In this document: piece by piece, positions 23,072 to 45,850 of the stretch | Numbering within the stretch: position 1 is the stretch's first letter | Layout: the number at the start of each line of letters is the position of its first letter | From: an uncultured virus (IMG/VR IMGVR_UViG_3300035661_004061) | Taxonomy: Duplodnaviria > Heunggongvirae > Uroviricota > Caudoviricetes | Virus record (IMG/VR): IMGVR_UViG_3300035661_004061 | Strand: one strand, 5' to 3' | DNA: 60,894 bases | The notes under the pieces: generated by a model | Seen by the model: only the letters and a program-made list of their open reading frames with translations | Databases searched by the model: none | What the model was told of the DNA's origin: nothing | Position numbers and translations under genes: made by a program

Positions 23072-26000
23072 ATGATAAGAAGTAAAAATGTTAAAAGTTC
23101 TTTATTCAAGATTTTTGAAGATAATGCAAAAATATTTATATTTGATACAGAAACTTCCGGTTTAGGAACAAGAAATAACCCAGCAGAAATGATAGAATTT
23201 TCAGGTTTAAAATATAATTTAAAAAAAGATTTAAAATTAGATTTTAATGAAAAAACAAAAGAATTAAGTGTTAATTTCAATGGGAAAACATTGATATTTA
23301 AAACTAAAGAAACAAATGTAAATACTACTTCTAATGATTTTAAAATAAAATTAGATAATGATGAAGAATTAATTATAAAATATAATATTCCAGTAATAAA
23401 GAAAAAAAATAAATTTGTATTACCTTTTAATAGTTTTGGAGAATTTCAATTAGAAGAAACGATTGATCAAATGTATTCTTCTAATAAAAACATTGAACCT
23501 GGTGCTACTAATGTTCATAAAATTTATAATAAATCCCAAATTATTAATGAAGATAATATTGATGAATTGAAAAATTATGGAAGAACTATTTTAAATTCAT
23601 ATAAAGAAAAATATTATGATAAAAAAATAGATAGTCTTACTAAAAGCATTGATAAAAAAGAAGAACAAATCAAAAAAATAGATAATAATAGAAAAAAAAC
23701 AGATACAGAAATTAAATTATTAGAAATTATGACTAATGAATTTAAATTTATGAAAAATGAATTAAAAGGACTAAAAGAAAACTTAACAATAATTAAAAAA
23801 TATATCCAATCAGTTGAAAAAAGTAAAACAACAAACGAAATATCTGAAACTGTATTATTATTTTTTAAAGTATTTAATTTTAGAAATAACTCTGATTCTT
23901 CACCGTTAGAAAAAGAAACTATTGATAAATTAAAAGAAATATTAAATAATAACGATAATGTATTGGTTGGACATAATATTTTTAATTTTGATATTAAAAA
24001 CATATTAGAACCAGTAATCGGAGATGTTTCAAATCCAAATGTAATGGATACTATGTTTTTCCCTATGGAATATAATAAAAAATCAAAAACAAGAGCAACA
24101 TTAGATAAATTTATTAATATTGGAATAGAAAATGTTTTTTCTAATTTAAAAAAAGAAATCGAAAGTTTTCAAAAAATTAATAAAAAATTTGAAGATGAAA
24201 AAGAAAAAGAAATATTTGAAAATAAAAAATCAGAATTTATAGATTTTTTTCAATTAAAAATATTTAGAAATAAAAAATTAACAGAAGAAGAAATAAAAAA
24301 TTTAAATATTTTAATGGAATATTTTAATAATATTGAAGGAATTAATACAAATTCTTATATTTCAAAAGAAGAATTGAATTATATAAATTATATAAATTCT
24401 TTAATTGAAGAAAGAGAAGGAATTCATACCTCTTTATTAGATATAAAATTAAATTTATTTGCATGGGAACATCAAATAATTGAATATATTTCATTACATG
24501 GTTTAGAAGATGTTTTGGTAGAAAATACAGTTATTAAAAATTTAGAAGAAGAAATTCCTAGTGAAACAACTGTAAAAGTTGATACTTATTTAGGTTTAAA
24601 AACAACTTTTTCAAAAGACGTTATTACTAAAAATACAGATATAGTTAATAAAGCAAAAGAATTAGGACTTAAAAATGTTGCTATATCAGATGCTAGTTTT
24701 ACAGATTTTTATGATAATCAAAAAATTATTGGAAAAGCAGACATAAAAAACATCATATCAGTAGAATTAAAATTAATATTTGATAATAATGAATATCCAG
24801 AATTTAATGATTCTAAAATCAATATAATTTTTCCAACTCAAAAAGATTATTTCAATGCTATTTTATTAATTAATGATTATAAAATTGAATATAATGATTT
24901 ATTACTTTTATTAAAACAAACAAATATTAAAACAATTATACCTTTGGAAATGGATAAATTATTTACAAAAGAAAAAAGTGAAATAAAAAACATATTTATT
25001 AAAGTATCTCCATATTCATTAGATAATTATGAAGTTGAAACAGAAAACAAAAAAGTATTATGGATTGAAAATAAATATACAGATAATACAAAAGAACAAA
25101 AAACATTACAATATTTATGGAAAAATATTTCAAGTAATACTACTATGAGTTTAGTTACTATGAATAATATATATAAATTTAGTGAAAATTATCAAGATTT
25201 CCATATACCTTCAAAAGAAGAATTAGGTGTTATTTTTCCAGCAGAAAAATTTAATGAAATTTATAAAAATAGTGATTTAATAGCAGAAGAATGTGAAAAT
25301 TTTGATATTGAAGCAAAACATTTACCAATTATTCCAACATTAACAAGATTACAAACAGAAATCAAAGAAAACCCTACAAATGCGGCAGAATATAAACATA
25401 TATTAACTGAATTTCTTAAAAAACAATGGAAATCAAAAGATATGGAAAGTTTATTAAAAATAAAAACTTTAAAAACTTATTTCAAAAATAAAATAAAAGA
25501 ATTTGATGAATTAAGTTATCAAGGATTACAAAATTTAAGTTTAGAAGAAAGAAATTTAATTAAAAAAATCATTAATACAGATCTTTCAATTATGAATAAA
25601 GAAGAATTATTAAAAATGTCAAATGAAGAATTAAATAAAAAAGGTAAAACTCTTAAAGAACAAGAATTAATAAATGAATTTAGAGAATTATATACATTTA
25701 AAAAACACGAATATGGTGATAGAATAAAATATGAATTAGATTCACTAGAAAACTTTGAAAACTATGAAATAGTTTTTAACTATTATTTTTTAATGAGAAA
25801 AATCTTAAAAGTTTTAGAAGCAAAGGGAATAAGTCATGGACCTGGACGTGGTTCAGCAGCTGGTTCAATTATAGCATTTTTAATGGAAATAACAGATATA
25901 GATCCTGTTGATGGAGATTTACTATTCGAAAGATTTATGAATCCAGAACGTGTATCGATGCCCGATATAGATACTGACCTTCCAATGAGTAAAGAAATTA

Positions 26001-29000
26001 CAAAAGATTTAATTATTGATATTTTAGAAGGTGCATTTAAATTAAGTGACGAAGAAGCAACAGAATTATTAGGACAATATGATTTTTATGATAAAGAAAT
26101 AATTAAAGCATCATTAAATAAATTAAGATATACAGCTAAAATTTCAACAGTCATGTATTCTTCTGAAAAAACAATATTCGGGGATATGTTTCGTTTATTA
26201 GGAATTCCAGGAAACCAATTAAGTCCAATTAAACGTTCTTATAATGCAGATATCAATATATCTGAAAATTTTTCTAGTATTCCAGAAGTAGATTCTTATA
26301 TAAATAGTTTGGATTTCATCATAAATGATTTAAAAAGTTTAGGTGATTTAATGAGTGCTAAAGGAAAACATGCTGGAGGTGTTAATATTTCAGGTGGTCC
26401 TGCAAACGCACATGCAATGAATGAAGATAATACAAATGTATTTACAAAAGATGTTGCATCAAATGAAAGTAAAATGGACTTACTTGGATTAATTGGACAA
26501 AAACTTATAGATGAATTAGATAGTGTCGAAGAAACTTCAGAAAAAACAGGAAGAACGGAATCTATTGATTATAATTTTTCAATTACAGAAGATTCAAATA
26601 TATGGGATTTAATACAAAACGGTAAAACAGCTAATGTATTCCAAATTGAATCAGATGGTATGAAAAAAATGTTAAAAAGATTAGCACCATTAGATTTTGA
26701 TACATTAGTTGCCGCACTTGCTTTATATAGACCAGGTCCTATGGAAGCTGGATCTGTTGATGAATATATTATTAATAAATATATTGATATTCAAAAAAAA
26801 TATTCAAGATTTGTTGAACCTATATTAGGAAAAAGAATTAAAAATGGTTCATTTTTAAAAGAAGAAAGTGATAAAATGTATGATTTTATTAATAATAATA
26901 AATTTAAAAAATTAGTTGATAAAGAATTGTTTTTTAATATTTTAAATGCTACACCTTATACAAAAACAAATGAATTTAAAAATAGAATCACTTCTTCATT
27001 AGATGAAGTGATAAATATTATTAAAAATGATCCAGATGCAACTGATGAAGAAGTATTAGACATTAAAAATAGTATTATTGAAGATCCTGAAAAACAACAA
27101 CAAGAATTAAAAACAATTGAAAAAGAATTTTTAAAATATTATAGAGATTTAAAAAGTATAGATAAAAGTATGGAAAAAACATTAGCTTTCGCAGCAAAAA
27201 TAGAAGACGAAATTAAAGGTTCTGAAACATATATAGATATAACAAAAGAAACTTATGGAACTATTATTTATCAAGAACAAATCATGCAAATAGCTTCAAG
27301 AATAGCTGGATTTACAAAAGGTGAATCAGATGCATTAAGAAAAGTTATTGCTAAATCTAAACAACTACAAATTATGAAATTTAAAAATCAATTGGTAGAA
27401 GGTTTTACAAATAGAATTGATAAAATAATATTTAAAAATGGTAATACAATTTATAGAAATCATGATTTTGAAACAGTATTAAATATTAATGGAGAAGAAA
27501 TAAACTTATATAATAGTCCATTTAAAGTTGTTGATAATAAATTACATATTTCTTATACACCTTCTTCTATTAAAAAAGATAAAATATTAGAATCTTTAAA
27601 AATTGAAAGTATAGAAGATTTAGATGAAATTGTTAAAACTGATATTAAAGAAGTAATAAATGTAAATACAATGAGTACAAAAGCAGCTACATATTTATTT
27701 GATAATATTGTTGGATTTGGTTCGTATGCGTTTAATAAATCTCACTCTGCTAGTTATGCTCGATTGACTTATAAAACAGCTTTTTATAAATATTATTATC
27801 CTGAAAAATTTTATGCTATATCTTTAAAATATGCTTCTAAAAAATCAATTCAAGCGTTATTAAGAGAAATTATAAATGAAACAGATATTAAAATTAAATT
27901 ACCAACTATAAATAAATTAAATAAAGAATTTGATTATGATCTAGATGACCATACAATATTATTTTCACCAAATAAATTAAAATCAATTAAAGATGATTCG
28001 ATTTACGCTATTTATAATGAAATTAATAAAGGAACTAAATTTGTTTCTTTGTTTGATATGAAATTAAAATTAGGAAGTTTGGCTGATAAAGCTACTATTA
28101 AACAATTAGGTGTTTCTAAAATTTTAGAAGAAATTTCAGGAAGTTTAACACCTAAAATATTTAGTGAATTTGACAGTGAAATAAATTTAGCATTGAAAAA
28201 TTTTACAGAAGATAGATTAACAGAGGTTGCTAAAAAAGTTTCAGATAGAAAAGATGTAAAAGATTTTAAAGAATATTTTAAATTAATTAATACAATTAAG
28301 AAAAATGATGTTGTAAATTTACAAATTGAAGAAAACAATACATTATTAACTTCTATTAAAGAAAAATATGAACATATGTCAGCTAATGAATTTTCTAAAA
28401 AAGACGAAAATGAAGTAGAATTAGGATTTAATGGTGAAAATGAACAAGAAGAAGATATAGACGAAAATGAATTATTATTAGAATTAGAAAGTTTAGAAAA
28501 AAAATTAAAACCTATTTCTGAAGAAGATAAAAAATTAATTCAATATATTGAAAATAAATATCAAAAAGAAATCAAAGAATATTATTCTTTAAGTTCAGAA
28601 GATGGAGACAAAAAATTATTATCATATATTGAAAACGAAATTGTTTCAGAAGAAAAACTAGAAAGATTTAAAGAAATGATAGAAAACAAAACTGATTTTA
28701 CTGCAGAAGAACAAGACGAAGTAAATATTAAACTTTTTGCAGAATATAATTTTTCAGGAACTAAAATTGATTTAACAAATAGAACTTTAAATCCAGAAGA
28801 ATTAGAAAAACAAATAAAAACATATTATCAAGATGTAAGAACACATTTACAATCTGTTCCTGATTATCAAAATAATGAAAAAATAGCTAATTTAAGAGAA
28901 CCTTATTATTATATTGGGAAAAATCCTAAAATAATAGTTATTACAGAAAATAGTATTTTTTCAAAAATAGATGATATATATTATATGGATAAAAAATTAA

Positions 29001-29722
29001 AAGAAGATAAAAGAAACTTTACAAATAATGATGGAAAAGTTATAGAATTTTCAAGATATATAGATTCAGTATCACAAAAAGAATATAAATATGAACCTAA
29101 AACAGGTAAATTGCAATTGTGTGATAAAAGTTCTGGAAAAACAGAATACAAAGATGTTCCAGATAGTCAAGTAAAATGTACATTCAATAATAACTTTGCT
29201 TATAAATTTTTTGAAGATTTAATTAAAGCGAACCCTTTATTAACAATGGACGATTTTGCTATAATGTCTTATTTTCCATTTAATAAATCTTCTATGCCAA
29301 AGAAAATGGTAGCTGATGCAGTTTATTCAAATAAATTAAAAAAATTATTACAAAATGTAAAACCTGGTATGATTATGCCAACTGGTATGGATTTAATTAA
29401 AGCTGTTAAAGGTATGCATTTCTTTAAAAGAGAAGAATTTGATACAGTATATCATGTTCCTTATCACTTTAATTTTGATGATAAATCTAAAAAAACAGAA
29501 GACCAAATATATACAAAAGTTGTGTTTTTTGAAAATCCAAATAAAGACTTTATTTTAAGTAAAGTTGAAGACGAAAAATCTAAAAAAGAGATTATGGAAC
29601 AAGTAAATAAAATAAAACGAGAATTAACCGAAACAATAAAAGATGTAAAAAATAATACAGTTGAAGAAAACTTAAAACATAATATTAATGTTGAAAATAA
29701 AGAAAATCTTAATATGGAATAA
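23072..29722 (+). CDS. dnaE: DNA polymerase III alpha (DnaE) with an N-terminal DEDDh exonuclease and a C-terminal UDG-like domain
   Basis: FDTETSG / VGHNIFNFDI / HTSLLDI; His-less PHP; GPGRGSAAGS, LLFERFMNPERVSMPDIDTD, HAGG, KMDLLGL, VFQIES, ALYRPGP, YQEQIM and YAFNKSH; C-terminal GKNPKIIVITE...VKPGMIMPTG...FFENP. Confidence 0.93.
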   Translation: MIRSKNVKSSLFKIFEDNAKIFIFDTETSGLGTRNNPAEMIEFSGLKYNLKKDLKLDFNEKTKELSVNFNGKTLIFKTKETNVNTTSNDFKIKLDNDEELIIKYNIPVIKKKNKFVLPFNSFGEFQLEETIDQMYSSNKNIEPGATNVHKIYNKSQIINEDNIDELKNYGRTILNSYKEKYYDKKIDSLTKSIDKKEEQIKKIDNNRKKTDTEIKLLEIMTNEFKFMKNELKGLKENLTIIKKYIQSVEKSKTTNEISETVLLFFKVFNFRNNSDSSPLEKETIDKLKEILNNNDNVLVGHNIFNFDIKNILEPVIGDVSNPNVMDTMFFPMEYNKKSKTRATLDKFINIGIENVFSNLKKEIESFQKINKKFEDEKEKEIFENKKSEFIDFFQLKIFRNKKLTEEEIKNLNILMEYFNNIEGINTNSYISKEELNYINYINSLIEEREGIHTSLLDIKLNLFAWEHQIIEYISLHGLEDVLVENTVIKNLEEEIPSETTVKVDTYLGLKTTFSKDVITKNTDIVNKAKELGLKNVAISDASFTDFYDNQKIIGKADIKNIISVELKLIFDNNEYPEFNDSKINIIFPTQKDYFNAILLINDYKIEYNDLLLLLKQTNIKTIIPLEMDKLFTKEKSEIKNIFIKVSPYSLDNYEVETENKKVLWIENKYTDNTKEQKTLQYLWKNISSNTTMSLVTMNNIYKFSENYQDFHIPSKEELGVIFPAEKFNEIYKNSDLIAEECENFDIEAKHLPIIPTLTRLQTEIKENPTNAAEYKHILTEFLKKQWKSKDMESLLKIKTLKTYFKNKIKEFDELSYQGLQNLSLEERNLIKKIINTDLSIMNKEELLKMSNEELNKKGKTLKEQELINEFRELYTFKKHEYGDRIKYELDSLENFENYEIVFNYYFLMRKILKVLEAKGISHGPGRGSAAGSIIAFLMEITDIDPVDGDLLFERFMNPERVSMPDIDTDLPMSKEITKDLIIDILEGAFKLSDEEATELLGQYDFYDKEIIKASLNKLRYTAKISTVMYSSEKTIFGDMFRLLGIPGNQLSPIKRSYNADINISENFSSIPEVDSYINSLDFIINDLKSLGDLMSAKGKHAGGVNISGGPANAHAMNEDNTNVFTKDVASNESKMDLLGLIGQKLIDELDSVEETSEKTGRTESIDYNFSITEDSNIWDLIQNGKTANVFQIESDGMKKMLKRLAPLDFDTLVAALALYRPGPMEAGSVDEYIINKYIDIQKKYSRFVEPILGKRIKNGSFLKEESDKMYDFINNNKFKKLVDKELFFNILNATPYTKTNEFKNRITSSLDEVINIIKNDPDATDEEVLDIKNSIIEDPEKQQQELKTIEKEFLKYYRDLKSIDKSMEKTLAFAAKIEDEIKGSETYIDITKETYGTIIYQEQIMQIASRIAGFTKGESDALRKVIAKSKQLQIMKFKNQLVEGFTNRIDKIIFKNGNTIYRNHDFETVLNINGEEINLYNSPFKVVDNKLHISYTPSSIKKDKILESLKIESIEDLDEIVKTDIKEVINVNTMSTKAATYLFDNIVGFGSYAFNKSHSASYARLTYKTAFYKYYYPEKFYAISLKYASKKSIQALLREIINETDIKIKLPTINKLNKEFDYDLDDHTILFSPNKLKSIKDDSIYAIYNEINKGTKFVSLFDMKLKLGSLADKATIKQLGVSKILEEISGSLTPKIFSEFDSEINLALKNFTEDRLTEVAKKVSDRKDVKDFKEYFKLINTIKKNDVVNLQIEENNTLLTSIKEKYEHMSANEFSKKDENEVELGFNGENEQEEDIDENELLLELESLEKKLKPISEEDKKLIQYIENKYQKEIKEYYSLSSEDGDKKLLSYIENEIVSEEKLERFKEMIENKTDFTAEEQDEVNIKLFAEYNFSGTKIDLTNRTLNPEELEKQIKTYYQDVRTHLQSVPDYQNNEKIANLREPYYYIGKNPKIIVITENSIFSKIDDIYYMDKKLKEDKRNFTNNDGKVIEFSRYIDSVSQKEYKYEPKTGKLQLCDKSSGKTEYKDVPDSQVKCTFNNNFAYKFFEDLIKANPLLTMDDFAIMSYFPFNKSSMPKKMVADAVYSNKLKKLLQNVKPGMIMPTGMDLIKAVKGMHFFKREEFDTVYHVPYHFNFDDKSKKTEDQIYTKVVFFENPNKDFILSKVEDEKSKKEIMEQVNKIKRELTETIKDVKNNTVEENLKHNINVENKENLNME

Positions 29723-29823
29723 AACATATAAAAATAGTTAAAAATATTAAAATGTTTGACTATTTATTAATAAAATATTATAATAATAGTCTAAAAAACT
29801 ATAACAAAGGCAAGGACATAAAA

Positions 29824-30873
29824 ATGAAGTATTTAGGACGAACAGTAGTAGTAGGAAAATTTATAAGTGCTGATGATGAAAAAGCTAAATTTGAAATAAA
29901 TGGACAAATATTTGATATACCAGCTATTCAAGATCAAGGAGACTTTAAAAGTCCTTTAAATAGAAGAGACGAATTTCCAGAAGATAGAACGATGAAAGAG
30001 TATTTAACACATCCAAGAAAATCAATGAAAAGAAAATTGAAAAAAAACGATTATGTTTTATTGACTTTACAAAGATATATGGAAGAACCTAATAAAATAG
30101 ATTATCAATTACAAAACGCAGTTACTTTTATAAGATCTGTAAATGTTGAAAATGAATTAGAATATAAAGGTTTTGTTTTTCACGCAGATGACGTTCAAAG
30201 ATTTTATAAAAAAGATGAGAATTTACCTTTATATCTTATAAAATTTTCTTCTGCTAAAAAAACAAAAGAAGAAATTTCTGAAATTGGTGAACAATTATTA
30301 AAAGAAGGAATAACAAACAAATTTGTATTTACTTATAAAGAAGGTGAAGAATTTAAAAGAAAAAATGTTGTATTAGAGATAAATGAAGAATTATTTAAAG
30401 CTGAAACAGATAAATATAGTTTTATAAATTTAGAAGAATTCAAAAAATTCCTTTTAGAATCAGAAAATCTTATATTTAATATTTCTTTCTTTCAAAGTGG
30501 AACTAAGAAAAAAGAAATAGTAGATAAATATGAAAGTGTTTTCCTTAAAAATGCTAAATCAAAAACACCTAAAAATGATATTGAAAAAATTTTAAATGAG
30601 GATATTGAAGCTTATTATTCTCATAGAAAAATTAGATTAGATAATGACTCATTTAAAGAAAAAGAAATTCATGGAAAAGTTATAAACGAAAAAGGTGATT
30701 ATTTAATGGCACCTTCAATAGTTTCTTTTAAACAATCTAGAAGTGCGGAAGATGAAGAAATGTCATTTTATTTAGTTTCTTCTATTGTTCCAGATGTTAT
30801 TGCTATGAGAAAAAGAGCATTAGATTATCTTAAAAAACAAATATCTCAAGAAGAAATTAATGAAGAAAAATAA
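29824..30873 (+). CDS. Hypothetical protein
   Basis: Long ORF directly after dnaE; the AAGGA RBS favours ATG 29824 over 29752. Confidence 0.75.
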   Translation: MKYLGRTVVVGKFISADDEKAKFEINGQIFDIPAIQDQGDFKSPLNRRDEFPEDRTMKEYLTHPRKSMKRKLKKNDYVLLTLQRYMEEPNKIDYQLQNAVTFIRSVNVENELEYKGFVFHADDVQRFYKKDENLPLYLIKFSSAKKTKEEISEIGEQLLKEGITNKFVFTYKEGEEFKRKNVVLEINEELFKAETDKYSFINLEEFKKFLLESENLIFNISFFQSGTKKKEIVDKYESVFLKNAKSKTPKNDIEKILNEDIEAYYSHRKIRLDNDSFKEKEIHGKVINEKGDYLMAPSIVSFKQSRSAEDEEMSFYLVSSIVPDVIAMRKRALDYLKKQISQEEINEEK

Positions 30874-30895
30874 TTCTATTGTATAGAATTATTTT
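30867..30895 (+). terminator. Inverted repeat (13-bp arms) over a stop codon
   Basis: aaaataattctat-tgt-atagaattatttt. Confidence 0.45.
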
Positions 30896-30912
30896 AATAA
30901 AAGGAATATTTA

Positions 30913-31413: not shown

Positions 31414-31422
31414 AGGTTATAA

Positions 31423-35078: not shown

Positions 35079-35089
35079 TTAAAACTTAA

Positions 35090-36124: not shown

Positions 36125-36131
36125 TTAAATT

Positions 36132-36605
36132 TTATTCCCCACTTCTATTTTTAATTTTATACAAAATATCTTCACTTAATATTAATTGATTAAACTCAAA
36201 ATAATATTCCATAAATAAAGCATCCAAATTTGGGAAAACATTAATATTTTGTAAATATTTATCATAAATAATTAACTTTTCCTCAATTTCTTTGTTTTCT
36301 TTTATTTTAAAAAATTCTCCATTACTTATTATTTCTATATATTCTAAATCTAATATACTTTTTCTTATTGTTTTTGAAATATATTTTCTATATTTTATTT
36401 CCGAAGTATCGTTTTTATCTTCCTGATTTCCATTTTCAATAAATTGAATATTTTTATTTTCAGATTCATTATTGTCATTAGATATTTTATTTTTGGGATT
36501 AAAATCTGTAATGATATTTTTATCAGTAGTTTCTGTTATATTTTCAATAGCATATAAGTTAAAAGATAGGAATGAAAATAAAATAAAACAAGATATTTTA
36601 AACAT
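36132..36605 (-). CDS. Hypothetical exported protein
   Basis: Signal peptide ending LYA. Confidence 0.6.
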   Translation of the reverse strand: MFKISCFILFSFLSFNLYAIENITETTDKNIITDFNPKNKISNDNNESENKNIQFIENGNQEDKNDTSEIKYRKYISKTIRKSILDLEYIEIISNGEFFKIKENKEIEEKLIIYDKYLQNINVFPNLDALFMEYYFEFNQLILSEDILYKIKNRSGE

Positions 36606-36669
36606 ATTTTCATTCCTTTTAATTTTAATGCTATTATAATATAATTTTTATAAAAAATCAAAATAAAAA

Positions 36670-38577
36670 TTAATGATTTGTAAAACCAACCACTTTTTCA
36701 GAACCTTCAAATGAAGATTTAACTTCTTTTTTAATTTCGTCCATAAAATCTTCAATTTTAAAAATTAGTTCTTCTTCACGAACAGCGACTTTGTAAGCCG
36801 TATTTTTGACAATTAGATCTATTTGACCACCAGTTAATTCTTGAGTAATTAATTTATTTACTTCAAATCCTTCCTCATAATCAGCATCTTTTGGAAGATG
36901 TAATTTCCAAATTTTTTCTCTTTCTATTTTAGAAGGAGTTTTAAATTCTATTTTATAATTAAATCTTCTACTAAAAGCTTTATCAATATTATCAATAAGA
37001 TTTGTAGTAGCTATTATTATTCCGTCAAATCTTTCTATTTGTTCTAAAAATATATTTTGCATTTGATTATGCATATTATCTGAACTTCCGTTTGGATTTT
37101 CATTTCTTTTACTTAAAAATTGGTCAGCCTCATTTAATAGAAGAATAGGTTTAATACCAGTTTCTTTAACTATTTTAGTATATGTATTAAAAATCTCTTT
37201 TACATTTTTTTCAGATTCTCCTACATACATACTTAAAAGTTTAGAACAATCGAAACTTATTATTTTTTTTCCAATAGAATTAGCAAAAGCAACCGCCGCC
37301 ATAGTTTTACCTGTTCCAGGTTTTCCATGAAAAATAATTTTAGATTCTATATCATTACCATCTTTTTTAATTCCCCATTTTATAAGTCTATCTATAACTG
37401 TTTTATTTGTTTGTTTTATCAAAGAATATAACACTTCTTCCGTATCTTTATTTAAAATAACATCATTAAGTGTAATTTCACTTTCTATAATTTCAAAAAT
37501 AGGACTACTTTTTACAGAATTATAAAATAATTGAATTTTTTTAACTCGATCATTTTCATGTGTTTCTTCAATATTATTATTATCAAAACTTAACAATATT
37601 AATGTGTTTTCTTCAATATAATATATATAATTTAATTGTCCTGTTAAAGGATTTACTAATTTTTCTAATTTAATTATATCGTTTTTTAATAAATTACTAG
37701 TATAAATATATTTTCTAAAATCAGTTGAAGACATTTCTTTTTCTTTGTCGATTAAAAACGCTAAATCATTTTCAATATCTATATATTCTTGTTCATCTGT
37801 AAAATATTCTTGTTTTATTAAAGATATAAGAATTAATGTTTCAACTTCTGTTAATTTATGTTCTTGACAAAAATTTATTAATTTATTATGAAAAGCATTA
37901 TCAATAGAACGTTTTATAATATTTTTTTCTAATTTTTTGATATAAGAATTTAAATTTTTATATATTGGGGATTTTTTTGAATCAATTCCATTCTTAACCA
38001 TTTTATTTAAATTAATAATATTTTCTATATAAATAAATTGATCATTTAAATATTCGTCATAATTTTTATATTTATCAATTTCTATTATTTCAGGAATTGT
38101 TATTTCACCTTTGTTAAGTAATTCTAAAAATTCATTACTAATAAATATTCTTTTATTCAAAAAAGAATATTCGTCTTCTATATTTTTTTCTTCGTTATAT
38201 ACAGAAACCCAACCAATAGAAATAAGATTTTTCATATTTTTTAAAAATTTTAGATATTTAAAATCATTCTTATCATTTTCAAAATATGATAATTCTATAT
38301 CTGTTTTTAATAACTCTTTTGAAGAAATATTTTCAGACAATAATTCTTCGGTTGCCTTCAAATCACCTTCTAATCCCATAAATCTTTTATCATGAAAATC
38401 TTGAATGATATAGTTAATTACAACATATTCATTATTTGTTTCCAATAAAAATTTCAAGATAAATCTCATTAATTCGAAATCGGTTTTGTTACAATTCATT
38501 TTATGAAAAATATTTAAGTCTTCATATTTTTCAGTTGTTAAAAATTCTAATAAATTACTTTTCTTTTGTGTGCTCAT
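36670..38577 (-). CDS. AAA+ ATPase (Campylobacterota-type, C-terminal AAA domain)
   Basis: GKPGTGKT, SMYVGESEKNV, LLLNEAD, ATTN and AFSRRF. Confidence 0.9.
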   Translation of the reverse strand: MSTQKKSNLLEFLTTEKYEDLNIFHKMNCNKTDFELMRFILKFLLETNNEYVVINYIIQDFHDKRFMGLEGDLKATEELLSENISSKELLKTDIELSYFENDKNDFKYLKFLKNMKNLISIGWVSVYNEEKNIEDEYSFLNKRIFISNEFLELLNKGEITIPEIIEIDKYKNYDEYLNDQFIYIENIINLNKMVKNGIDSKKSPIYKNLNSYIKKLEKNIIKRSIDNAFHNKLINFCQEHKLTEVETLILISLIKQEYFTDEQEYIDIENDLAFLIDKEKEMSSTDFRKYIYTSNLLKNDIIKLEKLVNPLTGQLNYIYYIEENTLILLSFDNNNIEETHENDRVKKIQLFYNSVKSSPIFEIIESEITLNDVILNKDTEEVLYSLIKQTNKTVIDRLIKWGIKKDGNDIESKIIFHGKPGTGKTMAAVAFANSIGKKIISFDCSKLLSMYVGESEKNVKEIFNTYTKIVKETGIKPILLLNEADQFLSKRNENPNGSSDNMHNQMQNIFLEQIERFDGIIIATTNLIDNIDKAFSRRFNYKIEFKTPSKIEREKIWKLHLPKDADYEEGFEVNKLITQELTGGQIDLIVKNTAYKVAVREEELIFKIEDFMDEIKKEVKSSFEGSEKVVGFTNH

Positions 38578-38647
38578 TAAACAAAACCCCTTTAATATTT
38601 CAGTTGAATGTTATTATACTTAAATAAATAATTAATTCAATTTTTTT

Positions 38648-39553
38648 TTATATATATTTCGTATAATTTAAAGGTTTTTTAAATTTCATACTATTATAAT
38701 CCCCAAAAATAAATGCGATGTGTTCTTCAACTTCCGATAAATTTCCATTTATATTTTCTACATTTAAAACTTTTGAATTTACGAAAACAACATTTAAATT
38801 ATTAAATTCAGGATAAATTTCTTTTATATTTTTTATAGCATTGTTGATAATATTTCTAGTATGTGTAATATATTTATAATTTGTTTTAAATATTTCATTA
38901 AATTCATTTAAAGTAATTGTAAAAAATCTTATATTATTTAATCTGTTATATTTTATTATTAATTCAGATAATTTTAAAGCGTATAATGAATGAAAAGAAT
39001 TCATTTTTTGAATATCTAAAATTGTAAAAGTATTATTAAAATTAATAATTTCATCAAAAATCTTTTTATCCAATAAAAACTTAATCTCATTATATTCAAT
39101 CGGAGCACCATTTTTATTATATTTTTCGAATTCACTTTTCCATAATAAACTAGTAATTATTGTTTTATCTTCATATTCTATTTTAAAGGGTTGGCTCAAG
39201 TTAAATATACTATTTTTTAAAATTTTATAAAATCCCTTTTTTGAACTAAATTGTAATATTTTTCTTAATTCTGAATACTTTAAAATCATTTTATAGTATT
39301 CCTTTCCTTCATCTTCTATAAGTCGCATATTTGTATCTTTTATATGTTCTTTATTTGTAATTAAAAATATTAAAGTATTGAATAATTTCAAATCCAAAAC
39401 ATTATTTAAATTTTCTCTTTTTATTAAGCAATCGTTTTTAATAAATAAATTTTTATCATACATTTTTTTACTGGCATAATTAACAGCTGAATTTAATTTA
39501 TTATTAGTAATAATATCCATATTCAATTTTTCTTTCACAATATTTTTTTCCAC
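38648..39553 (-). CDS. Rep_3-family (RepA/RepB) plasmid replication initiator
   Basis: FTILDI....FHSLYALKLSELI, ITLNEFNEIF...Y and INNAIKNI follow the Rep_3 pattern. GGAGG lies 7 nt upstream of GTG at 39553 (track start 39601). The gene is adjacent to direct repeats. Confidence 0.75.
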   Translation of the reverse strand: MEKNIVKEKLNMDIITNNKLNSAVNYASKKMYDKNLFIKNDCLIKRENLNNVLDLKLFNTLIFLITNKEHIKDTNMRLIEDEGKEYYKMILKYSELRKILQFSSKKGFYKILKNSIFNLSQPFKIEYEDKTIITSLLWKSEFEKYNKNGAPIEYNEIKFLLDKKIFDEIINFNNTFTILDIQKMNSFHSLYALKLSELIIKYNRLNNIRFFTITLNEFNEIFKTNYKYITHTRNIINNAIKNIKEIYPEFNNLNVVFVNSKVLNVENINGNLSEVEEHIAFIFGDYNSMKFKKPLNYTKYI

Positions 39554-39918
39554 AAATACACCTCCATAAGAATAACTATCAAAAAATAAAACTTTAAACA
39601 AATTTTAAATTTTCGTTATGAGAAAACAAAATTTATGTATTGATTATTATAAGAATCTAAAATTTCAAAAATCATTTTTTTTAGTTATGTTTCTAGTCTT
39701 AAAACAAAAGTTACTTTAATTAATCATAAAACTATTTTATTTTTAAATTATAACACATAATTAATTTTTATCAAATCTATAATTTAAAAATTAATTTTTA
39801 ACAATCTTTCCAAAATATATTGGTGGAAATTCCTATATGCTTTTTTATATGCATCCTTTTATTAATATATTATTCTTCCTTTGTCAGTCAAAACATTTTT
39901 AATAAGATAGTTTTGAAT

Positions 39919-40073
39919 ATTATTTTGTGCAAAAGTGTAGGTGTGATTTTACATATTATTGATTATTTTGTGCAAAAGTGTAGGTGTGATTTTACATATT
40001 ATTAATTATTTTGTGCAAAAGTGTAGGTGTGATTTTACATATTATTGATTATTTTGTGCAAAAGTGTAGGTGT
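39919..40073. repeat. Iteron-like array, about 3.6 tandem copies of a 43-bp unit; putative replication origin
   Basis: attattttgtgcaaaagtgtaggtgtgattttacatattatt(g/a) starts at 39919, 39962, 40005 and 40048; non-coding, upstream of rep, beside an AT-rich tract. Confidence 0.85.
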
Positions 40074-40082
40074 ATATATTTC

Positions 40083-41267
40083 TTAAAAAAAAGATATATC
40101 TAATTTTTCAGAATCACAAATAGAATTTTCATTTAATTGATTTAACAATTTTTTATTATTTTTTTTTAAAATATTATATTCTGTTTCATTTTTTTCTTTT
40201 AAAAATTTATTAAGTTTGTTTAAAATTTTTTTATTATTTAGATCATTAGAATTATTTAAAAATATTATTTTATTTTTATTTTCATTAAAAACTAAAACAT
40301 CTTTATCTAATAAATAAATATTTTCAAAATTTATATTATTTATTTTTTCAAAACAATCTATCATAAATTTTTTGCTATTATTTATTTCATTATTTGAATT
40401 ATATCCCGTTATAAAAGTTTCATTATTTTGAGTTTCAATAATAATATGATATTTATTTCCTTTTATATTTTTAATATTTGAAATACCTTCAATTTTTGTA
40501 AAATTAGATATGATATATTTTTGATTTATTCCTAATATTCCATAATTATTATTTCCACAAGCAAAAACTTCACCATATTCATTTTCTATAATTGTACTAT
40601 TACCTATACAAAATATAGTTTTGGGATTAAAAAAAGGAAGTTTTTTAAAATCCTTTGAAAAAAACAAATGTTCGTATCCAAGTTGTCCTTTTTGATTGTT
40701 TCCACGTCCCCAAACTTCCCCGTTTTCATCTTCTACGATTGTATGATTATCCCCACATATAATTTTTTTAGAATTTTTATATATTTCATCATTTAATAAA
40801 AATATATCATTTATATTATACATATTTTCTTTAGTTAATTGTCCATGAATATTTTTTCCACAACCCCAAACATCTCCATTTTCATCTTTAATGATTGTAT
40901 GATTTTCTCCGCCAACTATTATTTGTGGTTTTTTGATATTAAATTTTATTTTATTAAACCCTGTAATAATATTATTTGTAATTTTTGTATTTTGTATTTG
41001 TGATAATTCCCCATATTCAGTTAGACCTATTCCTATAATTTCATTTGTTTTATTACTAAAAATAATATTATTTTCCCTTATTAAAATAATATTTTTTAAA
41101 TTAATGAAATTGGTTGTTTCTTTTAAATCTATAAAATGGTTAGGCATGAAATTTCCTATAATATCTAATCCCAACTGTCCATAACGATTATTTCCAGATA
41201 CATATATTTTATTTTTGTAAGATATGTATATTTGTTTTTTAACAATATTTAAATCAAATATTTTCAT
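40083..41267 (-). CDS. RCC1/BLIP-II repeat beta-propeller protein
   Basis: Repeated GxNxxGQLG, GENHTII, CGDNHTIV and VWGCG units. Confidence 0.88.
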   Translation of the reverse strand: MKIFDLNIVKKQIYISYKNKIYVSGNNRYGQLGLDIIGNFMPNHFIDLKETTNFINLKNIILIRENNIIFSNKTNEIIGIGLTEYGELSQIQNTKITNNIITGFNKIKFNIKKPQIIVGGENHTIIKDENGDVWGCGKNIHGQLTKENMYNINDIFLLNDEIYKNSKKIICGDNHTIVEDENGEVWGRGNNQKGQLGYEHLFFSKDFKKLPFFNPKTIFCIGNSTIIENEYGEVFACGNNNYGILGINQKYIISNFTKIEGISNIKNIKGNKYHIIIETQNNETFITGYNSNNEINNSKKFMIDCFEKINNINFENIYLLDKDVLVFNENKNKIIFLNNSNDLNNKKILNKLNKFLKEKNETEYNILKKNNKKLLNQLNENSICDSEKLDISFF

Positions 41268-41284
41268 AATTCATCCTTAAAATT

Positions 41285-44200
41285 TTACATTAAATCTAAA
41301 TTGCATTCATGTAAAACTTTTTTAGTTTCATCACCAAAAATTTTATTCAAAGTTTCTTCAGATTCTTTGAAAAATCCTTTGTACAAATATCCAACTTTCA
41401 TTAATTCTTTAATAACAGATTTATTTATAACTTGTCTATTAACTTTATTCATCATATCTGTAAAATTTTTAAATGGTTGTTTTTCCAAAATTTCCAACAT
41501 AGCCGCTTTATTCGTTTTAAATAAATTAACAGTTTTCATAGGTTCTACAATTCTGTTTTTAACAATTGTGTAATTTTCTTTAGAATAATTTATAATAGCT
41601 TTATAAGAATCTTTTGAATTTATTTCTAAATCTAATTTGGGTTTATGTTCTTTAACCGCTAAATAAAACACAGGATAATGTTTGATTTTTAAATATAAAA
41701 AAGAATAACTATTCATTGCATAAGCAACACTATGACTTTTATTAAAAGCATATTTAGAAGAAGTTTCAATTTTATTAAATAAATATTCTATTGCTTCTTT
41801 TGATAAATTTTTATTTGAATTAGATAAAGTATTGATAACTTCTTCTTTAAATTTAGCTATTTCTGTTGTTTTTTTCTTACTAATAGCTTTTCTAATTTCA
41901 TTAGTTTCATCTAATGGAATACCTCCCATAATATTTAAAATTTCCATAATTTGTTCTTGATAAATAATAGTTCCATAAGTATTTTTTGTTATTTGTCTAT
42001 ATTTTTCATTACTTTCTAATTCTTTTTCCAAATCATTTTTTGATAAATATTTTACCTTATTTTTTATAAAATCTTCAATCATATTTTGTTCTTCATAATT
42101 ATTATGAAGTTTCTGTCTTAAAAAACTTTTCAATTGTTCTAATTGAGGGTTTTGACTTTTTTCTCTCCATTTTAATAATTCTTTCCATTCTTTAATATTC
42201 AATTCTTTTTCAAAAATAGTTTTATATTGAAAATACACTTCTTTAAAATTTTCATTTTTATTAGTATACAAAAATTCTATTTTTCTATTATTTAAATATT
42301 CTTTTTTAGATTCTAACGCCCCTGGTCTTATTAAAGCTAAAAAATCTGAAAGTTCATCAATATTTCTAGGTTCAACTTGTTTTAAATATTTTTCTTTACT
42401 TTCACGAATAACTTTTTTTTCAGAATCTAATTCAGGAATACCTATATAGTTTATTTTTAATAAATTATCCCATATTTCTTTGTTTTCAAAATCTAAATCT
42501 TTTGAATAAACAAATTGTGATTCTTTATCCAAATATTTAATTGCTGTTTCAACTATTGCTAAATTTTTTGAATTTAAAAAATCAAATTTTATTTTATTTA
42601 TATTTTGATCTATATTAAGAACTTTCATACCATCTTTATATTCAACATCATAATTGAAATTTTCACTATCTATAAAAATTGCAGAAGGATGTAAAATATA
42701 ATTAGATACTTCCCCAACTTGTTTTTCTATTAAATTTCTTAATAAAGGTTTTTCTTCATAAATTTTTTCCAATTCTTCTGGAATAGTATCAAAATCTTGT
42801 TGAACATTATCTAAATCATTTAAATCTTCCATATCTTCTAAATTTTCCATATCATAAGCAATTTCATCAATTTTTTTAGATATATTATTTATTTCTTCTG
42901 TTTTATAACCTACAATTCTCAATGTATTTGCAATAGCACCCTTTTTACCAATTTTATTAAAAACTTTTACTGTTGCTGTTTTTCCTTTATATTTTACATC
43001 CAAATATTTTAATAATTCTTCTTTAGCTTCTGCAGACATATTTAAATCGATGTCAGGGTAATCTTTTCTATTTTTATTTAAAAATCTTTCAAAATAAAGA
43101 TTATGTTTAATTGGATCTACTTGATGTAATCCCATCATATACGCAACAAAAGAACTTGCGGCAGAACCCCTCCCCATTGATATTTGATAATTTTTTTCTT
43201 TTAAAAATTCAGTTATATCTTTTAAAATAACAAAATATTTAAAGTAGTTATCATTTTCAAAACTTGCTAAAATTTCTAATTCTTGACTAATTCTATTCAT
43301 ATATAATGGTAGTTCTTCTTTTGAAATAGTTTTTTTAATATTAGGTGATTTCCAATTTTTTATCAAATGTTCTATATTAGGTTCTTCAAAAAATCTTTTA
43401 TCGTTTAAAACGTTTTCATCCCATAAATATAATAATAATTTTCTAAATGCTGAACTCATAAATTTCATTTTTTCTTCTTTGGTTTCAAGTAAATTTAATT
43501 TTTCTTCATTAACTAAAATATTTGGTAGATTAGGTTCTTCTTTTAATACAACATTTTCTTTAATAATATTTATTTTTTCATTAAATCTTTGTGTATTAGC
43601 TAAAATTTTAGAATATATTCCTTTTAATTTAATTTCATCATCAATTCTATTTTTTGCTTTCATTCGACTAGATTTAAATTCTATAAATTTTGAACTATGA
43701 ATAAATTTATTTTCTTCATATAAATTTTGGGGATTTTCAATTTCTTCATAAGATAATTTTTGATTACTTTGAATATGTTTATATAACATATAACTTTTAT
43801 AATCGGATTTATTAGTAAAACTATTATTATTAAAAAATATCGGTGAAAACGACCATTTATTAGGCAAATAATCTAATTCTATATCAGGTTCAACACCTAT
43901 TAAAACATTTGAATGTGTGATAAAATTATTTTTTAATAAAATTTTATTTAAACTATAAGGTAAAACTATAGTTACAGTATTAGGTAAATTATTTAAATTT
44001 TTTAAAGTAATTTGATTATCCAAAATTTTTGATTGAACAATTTGTATATCTTCTCTTTTAGTAAATAATAAATTTATATCATATAACCCACCAAAATTAA
44101 TTTTTAAATTAGGAATACATTTTAATTTATCTTCTGAAGTTGAAATTGTTTTATTTTTAAATTCTACATAATCTAAATATTTATTTAAATTTAAAAAATT

Positions 44201-45850
44201 TCTATCTGAAACAGAAAAAGATTTAATATTATTATCTTCTATAAATTTTATTACATCTTCATATTTACCCATTTTAAATTTATCATTTGTAGTATTTATA
44301 CCTAATGCTATATTAAAATTAGAAGTAGGTATTCCTAATTCAAGTGGAACTGTTTTTGTTACTTGAATTATATTCGATATTTTATCACTTAAATAATCTT
44401 CGTTTCCTTTGTTAAATTTAGAGTGCCATTCATTAAAATCTTTAACATCATTATTTGGTAATTTAATTTGTGGAACTTTATTATTTTCATCAGGATTAGA
44501 AATAATTGGTCCTATGACTTTGGACATATTTTCTATAAATTCAACACCACTAACGTCATTGTCTCCTAAAATATAAATATTTTTACCTAAAAACAACGAT
44601 AATTCTTGTTTCGATAATTGACTTCCAGCACCTGGAATTGAAATTGCTGGATGTTCTAATTGAACAGCTGTATTTGCATCTGTCCCACCTTCAAATATAA
44701 TAATAGTATCTGAAGTTTCTAATAAATCTTTATTATAAATAGTTAAAGGTCCGTATCCCATAAATCTAAATTCTTTTTTAACATTAGGATCTAAACTTCT
44801 AAATTGAATACCTTCAACTTGTCTTTCTTTTTCTCCAAATCCAGGTTGTCTAAAAAAAGGCATTATTACTTTATTGTTTTTAAATGGAATATCTTGATAT
44901 TTATTTAAAAAATCATATTTTTGTAAATAAAATATACCTTTAATAGTTTTAACAATTTCTTTTTCTTGATCATTTAATTTATTATTTTTCATTCTATCAT
45001 AAAAATTTTCCAAATATGAAATATCTTTATTCTTAATAAAAGAACTTTCTAAACAAATTTCAAAAAAATCTTCAATTTCAATAGTTAAAACTTTTTTACT
45101 AAATTTTTCTATCATAAATTTTTTCATAGGATGAATTTTACTATCTTCTAAATATAAAATTCCTCTATCTTTTAAGGTTTTTTCGTTAATATTTCTTGTT
45201 TCAAAATAATTTTTTAATTCTATTTGTGGAGAATTAGATAATTCTTTTTTCATGAAATTATAAAATTCTTTTAAAATTTCTTGTTTTGCTTCGATTTCTT
45301 CTTTCATATCATATTTTTGTGAAAATATAGAATTGACATCAAATTCTTCACCATACATTTCTTGATACAAATATTGAGAAACATTTATTATCATTTCTTC
45401 TTTTTTTAATATATCAATTGATATTTTTTCATTTTGTGAAATTTCTATTAAATTTTTTAAACTTTTTTCTAATTGGAATTTTTCTATTAATTCTTCACCA
45501 TAATTATATTCTTCTTCTGTTAAGTTATTTTGTTCTAAAACTTTTTTAAAATTTTTAGAATCAAAATTTCCTTTAATAGTCATAATTTTTGAAAAAAGAT
45601 TCCAATTATAATGCATTAAAAATTCTAATGAATTTGTTCCAGAAATACCACAAGCAAAACATTTAAAAATACTTCTACTATCTTTGATAGAAAGTGCAGG
45701 TGTTTTATCATTGTGTTTATGTCCAACTGTAAAACATCTTATTTTTAATTCAGGTATATTTATTGCCTTATCTTCTGTTACATTATTCAAACCAAAATCA
45801 ATATTTAATTTATTTTGTAATTTTACAGCTGTTCCTAATATTAAACCCAT
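41285..45850 (-). CDS. DnaG-type primase (CHC2 zinc finger + TOPRIM) fused to Pol III alpha (DnaE)
   Basis: RCF..GHKHNDKTPALSI...FKCFACG; QFRS; FEGGTDA, GDNDVSG, KDFNE; then His-less PHP, GRGSAAS, LYFERFLN..R.DYPDID, HPSA, KFDFL, ALIRPG, YQEQIM and YAFNKSH in one uninterrupted frame. Confidence 0.92.
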   Translation of the reverse strand: MGLILGTAVKLQNKLNIDFGLNNVTEDKAINIPELKIRCFTVGHKHNDKTPALSIKDSRSIFKCFACGISGTNSLEFLMHYNWNLFSKIMTIKGNFDSKNFKKVLEQNNLTEEEYNYGEELIEKFQLEKSLKNLIEISQNEKISIDILKKEEMIINVSQYLYQEMYGEEFDVNSIFSQKYDMKEEIEAKQEILKEFYNFMKKELSNSPQIELKNYFETRNINEKTLKDRGILYLEDSKIHPMKKFMIEKFSKKVLTIEIEDFFEICLESSFIKNKDISYLENFYDRMKNNKLNDQEKEIVKTIKGIFYLQKYDFLNKYQDIPFKNNKVIMPFFRQPGFGEKERQVEGIQFRSLDPNVKKEFRFMGYGPLTIYNKDLLETSDTIIIFEGGTDANTAVQLEHPAISIPGAGSQLSKQELSLFLGKNIYILGDNDVSGVEFIENMSKVIGPIISNPDENNKVPQIKLPNNDVKDFNEWHSKFNKGNEDYLSDKISNIIQVTKTVPLELGIPTSNFNIALGINTTNDKFKMGKYEDVIKFIEDNNIKSFSVSDRNFLNLNKYLDYVEFKNKTISTSEDKLKCIPNLKINFGGLYDINLLFTKREDIQIVQSKILDNQITLKNLNNLPNTVTIVLPYSLNKILLKNNFITHSNVLIGVEPDIELDYLPNKWSFSPIFFNNNSFTNKSDYKSYMLYKHIQSNQKLSYEEIENPQNLYEENKFIHSSKFIEFKSSRMKAKNRIDDEIKLKGIYSKILANTQRFNEKINIIKENVVLKEEPNLPNILVNEEKLNLLETKEEKMKFMSSAFRKLLLYLWDENVLNDKRFFEEPNIEHLIKNWKSPNIKKTISKEELPLYMNRISQELEILASFENDNYFKYFVILKDITEFLKEKNYQISMGRGSAASSFVAYMMGLHQVDPIKHNLYFERFLNKNRKDYPDIDLNMSAEAKEELLKYLDVKYKGKTATVKVFNKIGKKGAIANTLRIVGYKTEEINNISKKIDEIAYDMENLEDMEDLNDLDNVQQDFDTIPEELEKIYEEKPLLRNLIEKQVGEVSNYILHPSAIFIDSENFNYDVEYKDGMKVLNIDQNINKIKFDFLNSKNLAIVETAIKYLDKESQFVYSKDLDFENKEIWDNLLKINYIGIPELDSEKKVIRESKEKYLKQVEPRNIDELSDFLALIRPGALESKKEYLNNRKIEFLYTNKNENFKEVYFQYKTIFEKELNIKEWKELLKWREKSQNPQLEQLKSFLRQKLHNNYEEQNMIEDFIKNKVKYLSKNDLEKELESNEKYRQITKNTYGTIIYQEQIMEILNIMGGIPLDETNEIRKAISKKKTTEIAKFKEEVINTLSNSNKNLSKEAIEYLFNKIETSSKYAFNKSHSVAYAMNSYSFLYLKIKHYPVFYLAVKEHKPKLDLEINSKDSYKAIINYSKENYTIVKNRIVEPMKTVNLFKTNKAAMLEILEKQPFKNFTDMMNKVNRQVINKSVIKELMKVGYLYKGFFKESEETLNKIFGDETKKVLHECNLDLM

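Follow-up and report, generated by a model that had tools for sequence, protein, structure and literature searches.

In eukaryotes, Pol alpha-primase couples a primase with a polymerase devoid of proofreading, which adds a short stretch of DNA to the RNA primer before the proofreading replicase takes over. In Bacillus subtilis, according to the available text of two reports, DnaE extends RNA primers within a complex of DnaG, DnaE and helicase, which is followed by a hand-off to PolC (PMC3664799, PMC5737612). The available text of a 2026 survey of polymerases describes DnaQ as 'fused to some DnaE1s' (PMC12926913), and that of a survey of jumbo phages treats Pol III alpha and DnaG as separate (PMC7824862). 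In the current analysis we have identified two large open reading frames (ORFs) of C-family polymerases in a stretch of 60,894 nucleotides from an uncultured virus of the Caudoviricetes (IMG/VR record IMGVR_UViG_3300035661_004061), referred to below as the window. One of them carries a DnaG-type primase and the other a probable DnaQ-like exonuclease at the N-terminus. The initial annotation of this DNA had proposed a replisome with two polymerases derived from duplicated DnaE paralogues, and had placed both ORFs correctly:

23072..29722, plus strand: exonuclease-fused DnaE (exo-DnaE, P0001), 2216 amino acids (aa), recognised from Pfam, PHROG and NCBIfam matches, a family alignment and a domain map based on a hidden Markov model (HMM)
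41285..45850, minus strand: primase-fused DnaE (primase-DnaE, P0002), 1521 aa, recognised from Pfam, PHROG, NCBIfam and PDB 2au3 matches and a 6-member alignment

Both proteins are C-family polymerases that keep the catalytic palm residues. The families PF07733 and PF17657 have been assigned to each of them at 90-145 bits, the cut-offs being 22-24. P0001 matches DNA_pol3_finger (131 bits) and DNA_pol3_alpha (111 bits) and just misses the cut-off for PHP (26.0 bits, cut-off 26.4). P0002 matches DNA_pol3_alpha (145 bits), DNA_pol3_finger (90 bits), Zn_ribbon_DnaG (31 bits, cut-off 24.9) and HHH_6 (31 bits). In PHROG the two proteins fall to family 405 (DNA polymerase), with scores of 354-364 bits. 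The NCBIfam equivalog cut-off of 1002 bits, which applies to the DnaE1, DnaE2, DnaE3 and PolC groups, is reached by neither protein, the best score being 305 for P0001 and 261 for P0002. The catalytic palm aspartates of E. coli Pol III alpha are D401, D403 and D555. The palm aspartates of P0001 are D965 and D967 (PDIDTD) and D1136 (KMDLLGL), and those of P0002 are D933 and D935 (PDIDLN) and D1090 (KFDFL); each triad is invariant in 6/6 rows of its family.

P0001 begins with a putative exonuclease of DnaQ-like DEDDh type that is interrupted by large inserts; this is followed by a degenerate PHP domain, the palm, thumb and fingers of Pol III alpha, an HhH-like region and a family-specific C-terminus of about 550 aa. 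P0002 is comprised of a DnaG Zn ribbon, an RNAP-like region, a putative Toprim domain, a degenerate PHP domain, the Pol III alpha core and an HhH region. The N-terminal modules occupy the following positions:

44429..45736, minus strand: primase part of P0002, running from a Zn ribbon at residues 39-87 to a putative Toprim domain at residues 382-474
23072..24500, plus strand: exonuclease region of P0001, from a motif scan and a profile comparison (hhalign probability 93%, E 3e-7)

The primase proposed for one of the two enzymes is supported in P0002 by Pfam, PHROG and PDB matches. Its N-terminal 500 residues match Zn_ribbon_DnaG with an E-value of 5e-8 (PF01807, 31-33 bits; cut-off 24.9). The PHROG primase families 849, 360 and 6088 match residues 45-482 (E 8e-7 to 1.5e-4), and Aquifex DnaG (PDB 2au3) matches with an E-value of 9.5e-5 through weak colinear stretches in the RNAP and Toprim parts; PDB entry 1d0q is matched as well. 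The Pfam matches of P0002 to Toprim_2 (E 0.021) and Toprim (E 0.043) are weak and below cut-off, and the relatives P0006 and P0007 clear the Toprim_2 cut-off of 22.1 with 26.5 and 29.3 bits. The residues C39, H44, C64, C67, E387 and D430-N-D432 of the primase module are invariant in 6/6 family members, and an N-terminal DnaG primase is found in 6/6 members of the primase-DnaE clade.

The putative exonuclease of P0001 is recognised by its motifs, namely ExoI (FDTETSG at 24), 'VHKIY' near 148, ExoII (GHNIFNFD at 300) and ExoIII (HTSLLD at 452). In the alignment of the exo-DnaE family the exonuclease residues D307, H452 and D457 are invariant, and the ExoI motif DxE-T-T-G starts 14/14 exo-type proteins (11 found by pattern, 3 variants by eye). 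The N-terminal profile of the family aligns to the N-termini of Bacteroidota DnaEs bearing the Pfam domain RNase_T with a hhalign probability of 93% (E 3e-7). The proofreading exonuclease anticipated for this enzyme is suggested by motifs and profile alignment and not by direct searches; residues 1-489 of P0001 have no Pfam match, RNase_T included, even at E 10, and no match among PDB sequences. The exonuclease is split by about 270 residues of inserts, among them a beta-rich one (residues ~38-116) and a coiled-coil one (~160-250). A single-sequence AlphaFold2 model of the N-terminus has a predicted local distance difference test (pLDDT) score of 41 overall, and the coiled coil is its only confident part. 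The latter forms a long hairpin (residues ~160-250, positions 23550-23820) with pLDDT up to 91. Of the two enzymes, only the exonuclease-fused one has a proofreader.

The two proteins differ also beyond the core. Primase-DnaE stops about 30 residues past the HhH; in the five members of full length the HMM alignment breaks off at position 872-897 of 1147, and coverage of P0002 stops at 878 of 1147, with no OB fold and no C-terminal domain (CTD). Absence of the part that follows the HhH is as expected of a short-patch primer extender. The exo-DnaEs run on for about 550 residues past the HhH. Their alignment to the OB and CTD positions is nominal, and the Q..LF clamp motif is lacking at the place that it has in canonical DnaEs. 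In Pfam neither HHH_6 nor an OB family matches P0001, whose HMM alignment nominally reaches 1094 of 1147.

Each protein belongs to a small family. P0002 has five relatives (451-1309 bits), the next match being at 210 bits. For P0001 there are four relatives of full length and a shorter one. A phmmer search with the P0001 core against 1.84 billion representatives has added the long forms P0250, P0252 and P0262 and a set of 'compact' exo-DnaEs of 1700-2260 aa (P0253, P0254, P0256, P0257 and P0272, with P0127). These six compact proteins form a sister group in which the spacing of the exonuclease motifs is normal, ExoI and ExoII being about 120 aa apart, and their fingers insert is the same as in the P0001 family. 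Full-length identity is 33-51% within the primase-DnaE family and 30-40% within the exo-DnaE family.

The peculiarities that P0001 and P0002 were said to share concern the PHP domain, the fingers and two short identical strings. The regions concerned are:

24596..24916, plus strand: degenerate PHP of P0001, residues 509-615, from the alignment and the Pfam score of 26.0 against 26.4
26738..27244, plus strand: fingers insert of P0001, residues 1223-1391, from RPG to TYG..YQEQ, about 138 aa above the usual length
41987..42319, minus strand: fingers insert of P0002, residues 1178-1288, from RPG to TYG..YQEQ, about 80 aa above the usual length

Alignment to a canonical DnaE confirms that the PHP metal motif has been replaced in both. 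The ligands H,H,D,H of the canonical P0255 ('HLHLHT...D...TDHG') correspond to G,K,D,A in P0001 ('YLGLKTTFS..ISDA') and to G,N,F,R in P0002 ('ALGINTTND..VSDR'), Gly at the first His position being common to the two. The available text of the 2026 survey gives the active motif as HHDHEH[C/H]DH and takes any deviation as inactive (PMC12926913). Because their ligand positions deviate from the motif so defined, the PHP domains of P0001 and P0002 are inactive. Inactive PHP domains are common within the C family and do not exclude membership, and other phage and plasmid DnaEs (L327, L329, L092) are also PHP-degenerate.

From RPG to YQEQ there are 180 aa in P0001 and 122 aa in P0002. This spacing amounts to 98-423 aa in 18/18 scorable members of three related groups and 39-58 aa in 52/53 scorable other DnaEs, the exception being P0353 with 451. 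The P0001 family and the compact exo-DnaEs have homologous inserts (hhalign 97%, E 1e-10). An insert of some 100-150 aa at one site had been described for both enzymes; the site is indeed the same and the length holds for P0001, but the insert of P0002 is shorter. A common site in the two families is therefore real, and a common origin of the inserts is not established by the sequence comparison. The strings 'TYGTIIYQEQIM' and 'YAFNKSHS' are likewise present in both proteins, as had been noted, but they belong to the most conserved DnaE motifs and are weak evidence. YAFNKSHS occurs in 13/80 DnaEs examined; the 12-mer TYGTIIYQEQIM occurs in 5/80, namely P0001 and 4 primase-DnaEs, and near variants are widespread.

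The loss of PHP ligands in both proteins and their large low-complexity inserts could be taken as signs that one of the polymerases is catalytically dead or decaying and is retained as a scaffold. This appears hardly probable at all, as the palm Asp triad is invariant in 6/6 members of each family, the ORFs are unbroken over 2216 (P0001) and 1521 (P0002) codons, and the proteins are conserved over their full length within each family.

The relationship of the two cores has been analysed with trees of the palm-to-HhH core, cut by HMM coordinates, in sets of 80 or 49 rows; DnaE2 is absent from them as a labelled reference. In the FastTree tree of 80 rows the clade of 6 primase-DnaEs has the 14 exo-DnaEs as its sister group, with a support of 98. 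The same sister grouping is recovered from 49 rows by a quick IQ-TREE search under LG+C20+F+G4 with posterior mean site frequencies (PMSF), with an SH-like approximate likelihood ratio support of 99, and again in a Dayhoff-6 recoded tree (GTRX+FO+G4) at 96.4/95. In the FastTree and C20 trees the joint clade groups with phage and viral DnaEs, outside a bacterial clade of 14 rows (97 in the C20 tree) and with PolC as the outgroup. The sister topology is the best by 26-32 log-likelihood units under LG+F+G4 and by 8-13 in the recoded comparison. Each of the clades is already divided into several lineages.

Between the two polymerase genes lies a putative plasmid-type replication module:

38648..39601, minus strand: putative initiator of Rep_3/RepE type (Rep), 317 aa, from a RepM match and Foldseek
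39919..40073, no strand: candidate iterons, four direct repeats at 43-bp spacing, Tandem Repeats Finder score 303

The Rep ORF matches the NCBIfam family RepM with an E-value of 3.9e-7 and 29.7 bits, far below the cut-off of 250, and has no match in Pfam (Rep_3 included), PDB sequences or PLSDB. An AlphaFold2 model made from three sequences is poor (pLDDT 53). The Foldseek matches of this model in the PDB, to about rank 49, are all to RepE54, Rep, pi and RctB (domains 2-3), with E-values of 3e-4 to 1e-2 and TM-scores of 0.25-0.38. From these scores the protein would be a remote relative of RepM at best, and not RepM itself. The candidate iterons comprise 3.6 units of 43 bp that are 98% identical and lie 318-472 bp upstream of rep. 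Their 19-bp core, GTGCAAAAGTGTAGGTGTG, is found at 39927, 39970, 40013 and 40056 and nowhere else in the window, and 0 times in 100 shuffles. DnaA boxes are not enriched in the window (23 found, 20.4 expected).

The coordinates, the RepM match, the Foldseek results and the repeats together agree with the earlier statement that the polymerases lie on opposite sides of rep and iterons. Both genes are less than 10 kb from the Rep/iteron module, that of P0002 being about 1.2 kb from the iterons. They occupy opposite strands and belong to different gene strings; primase-DnaE heads a minus-strand string that runs from the divergent gap 45850-46067 into rep.

These observations suggest a possible scheme for the replication of the element. 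The RepE-like initiator would start replication at the element's own iteron origin, and the element would supply two C-family polymerases of its own. The DnaG module of P0002 would lay the RNA primer, and the attached DnaE core, which has neither proofreader nor tail, would extend it at once, so that primase-DnaE may be regarded as a bacterial-type counterpart of Pol alpha-primase and as a covalent version of the DnaG-DnaE complex of Bacillus. Exo-DnaE would then take over bulk proofread synthesis in the manner of PolC. The two cores would be paralogues of ancient date from a single radiation of mobile-element DnaEs, and each would have become fixed with an N-terminal fusion of its own. We consider the chances about evenly balanced that the locus encodes such a mobile-element pair of ancient C-family paralogues, one fused to a primase and one to an exonuclease, sharing replication from an iteron origin. 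Joint action of the two enzymes, the sequence of hand-off and an origin by duplication within the lineage are what we infer, and the division of labour between P0001 and P0002 is suggested by analogy with the known systems. A broader form of the proposal is put forward tentatively. It supposes a hitherto undescribed lineage of very AT-rich giant elements of mats, sediments and vents that carries a self-contained C-family pair from one ancient duplication, in which DnaG-DnaE would start every chain and DnaQ-DnaE would take over, with no canonical clamp motif and no OB or tau-binding tail.

A number of results weigh against the proposed pair, either in its function or in its origin. With regard to function, the scanned ORFs of the 61 kb contain no helicase (DnaB), clamp (DnaN), clamp loader (DnaX) or SSB in Pfam, PHROGs or NCBIfam, which upholds the remark in the initial annotation that no helicase or clamp gene is visible. 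The canonical clamp motif of QxxLF type is absent from its usual place in P0001 and P0002, and the 'processive' role that had been ascribed to exo-DnaE is accordingly unsupported. Co-occurrence of P0001 and P0002 is known from this element alone. With regard to origin, the cores of P0001 and P0002 share only 25% identity across 386 residues of the palm, and the best 150 phmmer matches of the P0001 core include no primase-DnaE, ordinary DnaEs being found at 196-243 bits. The inserts of the P0001 family and the primase-DnaEs show no detectable homology (hhalign probability 7.6%). In approximately unbiased (AU) tests, which for the LG comparison used fast tree searches and took in the PMSF topology, grouping of the primase clade with viral DnaEs is not rejected (p 0.38 recoded, 0.18 LG), nor is grouping of the exo clade with them (p 0.17 recoded, 0.22 LG). 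When the exo clade is removed, the primase clade falls inside the viral group at 99, and when the primase clade is removed the exo clade is left at the base without resolution. The 20 rows of the two clades are approximately the 20 richest of the 49 in the residues F, Y, M, I, N and K (FYMINK), so that composition is confounded with clade.

These same results on composition, AU tests and clade removal would be expected if the two genes had been acquired separately from different AT-rich elements and their sister grouping were an artefact of composition or long branches. The reciprocal similarity of P0001 and P0002, which is no higher than their similarity to ordinary DnaEs, and the non-homologous inserts point in the same direction. 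We nevertheless regard separate acquisition as somewhat unlikely. The clade persists under Dayhoff-6 recoding (96.4/95) and under the C20 mixture (99), bacterial rows with a FYMINK content near that of exo-DnaE are not drawn into it (P0025 0.37, P0021 0.35, P0255 0.35), and the two proteins agree in the Gly that replaces the first PHP His and in the place of the insert. From the sequences, sisterhood of the primase-DnaE and exo-DnaE clades is therefore favoured, not proven. In the trees built, the cores do not fall in unrelated clades; nearby alternatives are not rejected. What can be retained of the in-element duplication claimed at first is the sister relationship in three trees (95-99). Any duplication has to be ancient and not recent, because the cores are 25% identical and both clades are already divided; the alternatives in the AU tests and the confounded composition stand beside it.

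A different assignment of the two enzymes has also been considered, in which exo-DnaE serves the iteron-driven theta or plasmid state and primase-DnaE serves another mode, such as synthesis of the complementary strand after entry or transfer, the lytic phase, or gap filling and repair. DNA-transfer primases of Sog/TraC type are common on plasmids, the polymerase genes lie on opposite strands in separate strings, the primase-DnaE string runs into rep, and RecA and MutS are encoded nearby, all of which would suit such separate modes. Against them, no relaxase, type IV secretion system (T4SS) or imuA/imuB-like gene is seen in the 61-kb window, the core of P0002 lies outside the bacterial DnaEs in trees that lack DnaE2 as a labelled reference, and its gene is close (about 1.2 kb) to the iterons. 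We hold separate modes to be unlikely, and the sharing of replication from the iteron origin remains the preferred explanation for the pair.

The GC content is 15-25% throughout the window and about 20% for the element. A Rep identical to that of the window is encoded on a contig of 122,894 bp, and the element is therefore at least 123 kb long. The stretch 36000-45900 recurs in metagenomes of microbial mats, sediments and hydrothermal vents (8 runs, 6 studies), which shows that it is not a one-off assembly. Genes of phage type in the window include gp30.3, an RnlB-like antitoxin, an S49 protease with additional matches to head maturation proteases, and an NlpC/P60 domain. Capsid and terminase genes are not seen in the 61 kb. 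Genes of other functions have been identified at the following positions:

8250-9572: Amt ammonium transporter
17723-19579: AspRS
31423-32613: radical SAM/SPASM protein
33696-35078: CCA-adding enzyme
50511-53408: MutS
58432-59448: RecA

Further auxiliary genes encode MatE, ThyX-like, Ham1-like, RCC1-repeat and leucine-rich repeat proteins. The set made up of AspRS, CCA-adding enzyme, ThyX, Amt, MatE, RecA and MutS is typical of very large phages. Many ORFs of the window are without a family match in the libraries used. A tblastn search of AspRS and MutS against phages has returned mainly records that resemble host DNA filed as phage, and is uninformative on relatives. Near-perfect tandem repeats occur in frame within ORFs, one of 45 bp x 6.1 (96%) at 60620-60894 and one of 48 bp x 2.8 (97%) at 57604-57737 in a 453-aa ORF.

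Rep with iterons is in use on phage-plasmids too. For the element we slightly prefer the identity of a phage-plasmid or huge phage, and a megaplasmid is a possible but less probable one. The term 'giant plasmid' used at first is uncertain: beside the plasmid-like Rep and iterons the window has genes of phage type, and no capsid, terminase, relaxase or T4SS gene is seen in it. The housekeeping-type genes for AspRS, CCA-adding enzyme, RecA, MutS, ThyX, Amt and MatE could instead indicate a chromosome or chromid of a very AT-rich bacterium with a small genome, in which both enzymes would be the cell's own replicases. This is quite improbable in view of the absence of tRNA genes from the 61 kb and of ribosomal-protein families from the Pfam matches (rRNA lay outside the scan), the many ORFs without family, the plasmid-type Rep and iterons, the gp30.3 and RnlB-like genes, and the grouping of both polymerases with viral and not bacterial DnaEs.

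Three ORFs adjoin the polymerase genes or rep:

20578..22998, plus strand: 806-aa ORF with an epsilon-like DEDDh_C domain (PF21762, 50.9 bits) at residues 247-377
29752..30873, plus strand: 373-aa ORF, 30 bp downstream of exo-DnaE, without a family match
36670..38577, minus strand: classical AAA ATPase, 635 aa, adjoining rep

The 806-aa ORF shares the strand of exo-DnaE, which it precedes by 74 bp, and has an ExoIII-like motif 'HNAGND', the rest being without family; judged by its domain it is a possible accessory protein. The 373-aa ORF resembles a beta clamp in length, and its ESM Atlas model (pLDDT 0.38) gives no usable match. The AAA ATPase has its best NCBIfam match in IteA, an anti-phage ATPase, at 89 bits where the cut-off is 510; matches to clamp loaders and RFC are weak, and the protein is probably not a clamp loader.

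Both polymerase families are rare. Members are absent from the phage and plasmid collections and from the IMG/VR loci retrieved, the flanks of these loci being 10 kb, such that a second DnaE spaced as in this window would escape. Searches of IMG/VR with single proteins have given no relatives. Profile searches of IMG/VR, JGI metagenomes and GTDB genomes have given ordinary or split DnaEs at 21-47% identity among the matches listed, and the primase part was reached by 0 of the best 80 of 377 confirmed matches in the IMG/VR search with primase-DnaE. None of 178 Aquificota genomes (0/178) has a relative of P0002 at E 1e-50. DnaE-like matches are found in about 2000-2200 of 72,556 PLSDB records and in about 1250-1300 of 50,697 phage records. 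Those listed (50 phage and 24 plasmid) begin at residue 794 or later of P0001 and at residue 815 or later of P0002, and none of these reaches the primase or exonuclease part. No phage or plasmid record spans 80% of P0001 or P0002, and identity is below 32%. A single DnaE gene is encoded in 5/5 large IMG/VR records with DnaE (264-394 kb), and in one of them the gene is split.

IMG/VR loci with long matches have been considered as possible relatives and rejected, 46/160 being split DnaE genes with complementary HMM halves and no insert. These split viral DnaEs (L002, L003, L028, L082, L143 and others) consist of two to three ORFs with breaks at HMM position ~398 or ~570 and are fractured or intein-type arrangements.

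A covalent fusion of DnaG and DnaE was not found in a full-text search of the literature (main texts), which returned only the non-covalent complex of Bacillus. In the main text of the 2026 polymerase survey, as far as available, the word 'primase' is absent (PMC12926913). The fusion of DnaG to Pol III alpha would offer a natural single-chain enzyme for studying the passage of the primer from primase to C-family polymerase, a step that takes a three-protein complex in Bacillus. If the proposed roles are correct, a division of labour between two polymerases of the kind seen in Bacillota and eukaryotes would have been reached also on a mobile element and from one polymerase family. Among billions of database proteins the two small uncharacterised families number 5 relatives of primase-DnaE and about a dozen forms of exo-DnaE, and they are markers of a group of AT-rich elements that has gone unstudied.

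Among the known systems, the initiators RepE of mini-F, pi of R6K and RepA of P1 resemble the Rep of the window in the two-winged-helix fold suggested by Foldseek and in the direct iterons upstream of rep. The likeness is limited by the marginal sequence similarity (RepM 29.7 against 250), the iteron period of 43 bp with a 19-bp core, and the model with pLDDT 53. The DnaEs of SSU5-type phage-plasmids and of other plasmids and phages are likewise carried by mobile elements and often have a degenerate PHP (L327, L329, L092).

The DnaQ-fused DnaE1, for example of Bacteroidota, is similar to exo-DnaE in having an N-terminal DEDDh exonuclease (PF00929) followed by PHP and polymerase core (hhalign 93%). 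It differs in grouping with bacterial DnaE1, in its length of 1400-1520 aa and in the lack of fingers inserts, whereas P0001 has 2216 aa, about 270 aa of exonuclease inserts, two inserts in the fingers and another type of C-terminal region. The likeness to eukaryotic Pol alpha-primase is functional only, the latter being built from unrelated families (archaeo-eukaryotic primase and B-family polymerase) as several subunits and not as a single chain.

The closest functional analogue, judged by the proposed roles, would be PolC, DnaE (DnaE3) and DnaG of Bacillus, in which there are also two C-family polymerases, one of them with a DnaQ-type proofreader for bulk synthesis. In the present element, unlike Bacillus, primase and second polymerase form one covalent chain, the polymerase being without OB and C-terminal domains, and the proofreader is N-terminal, whereas that of PolC is inserted in the PHP. 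The genes are also located on a mobile element beside a Rep/iteron origin, and the cores group with viral DnaEs, away from PolC and bacterial DnaE. The theme of two polymerases is thus a known one, of which the present locus is an architectural variant on a mobile element, and the primase-DnaE fusion is its most original part.

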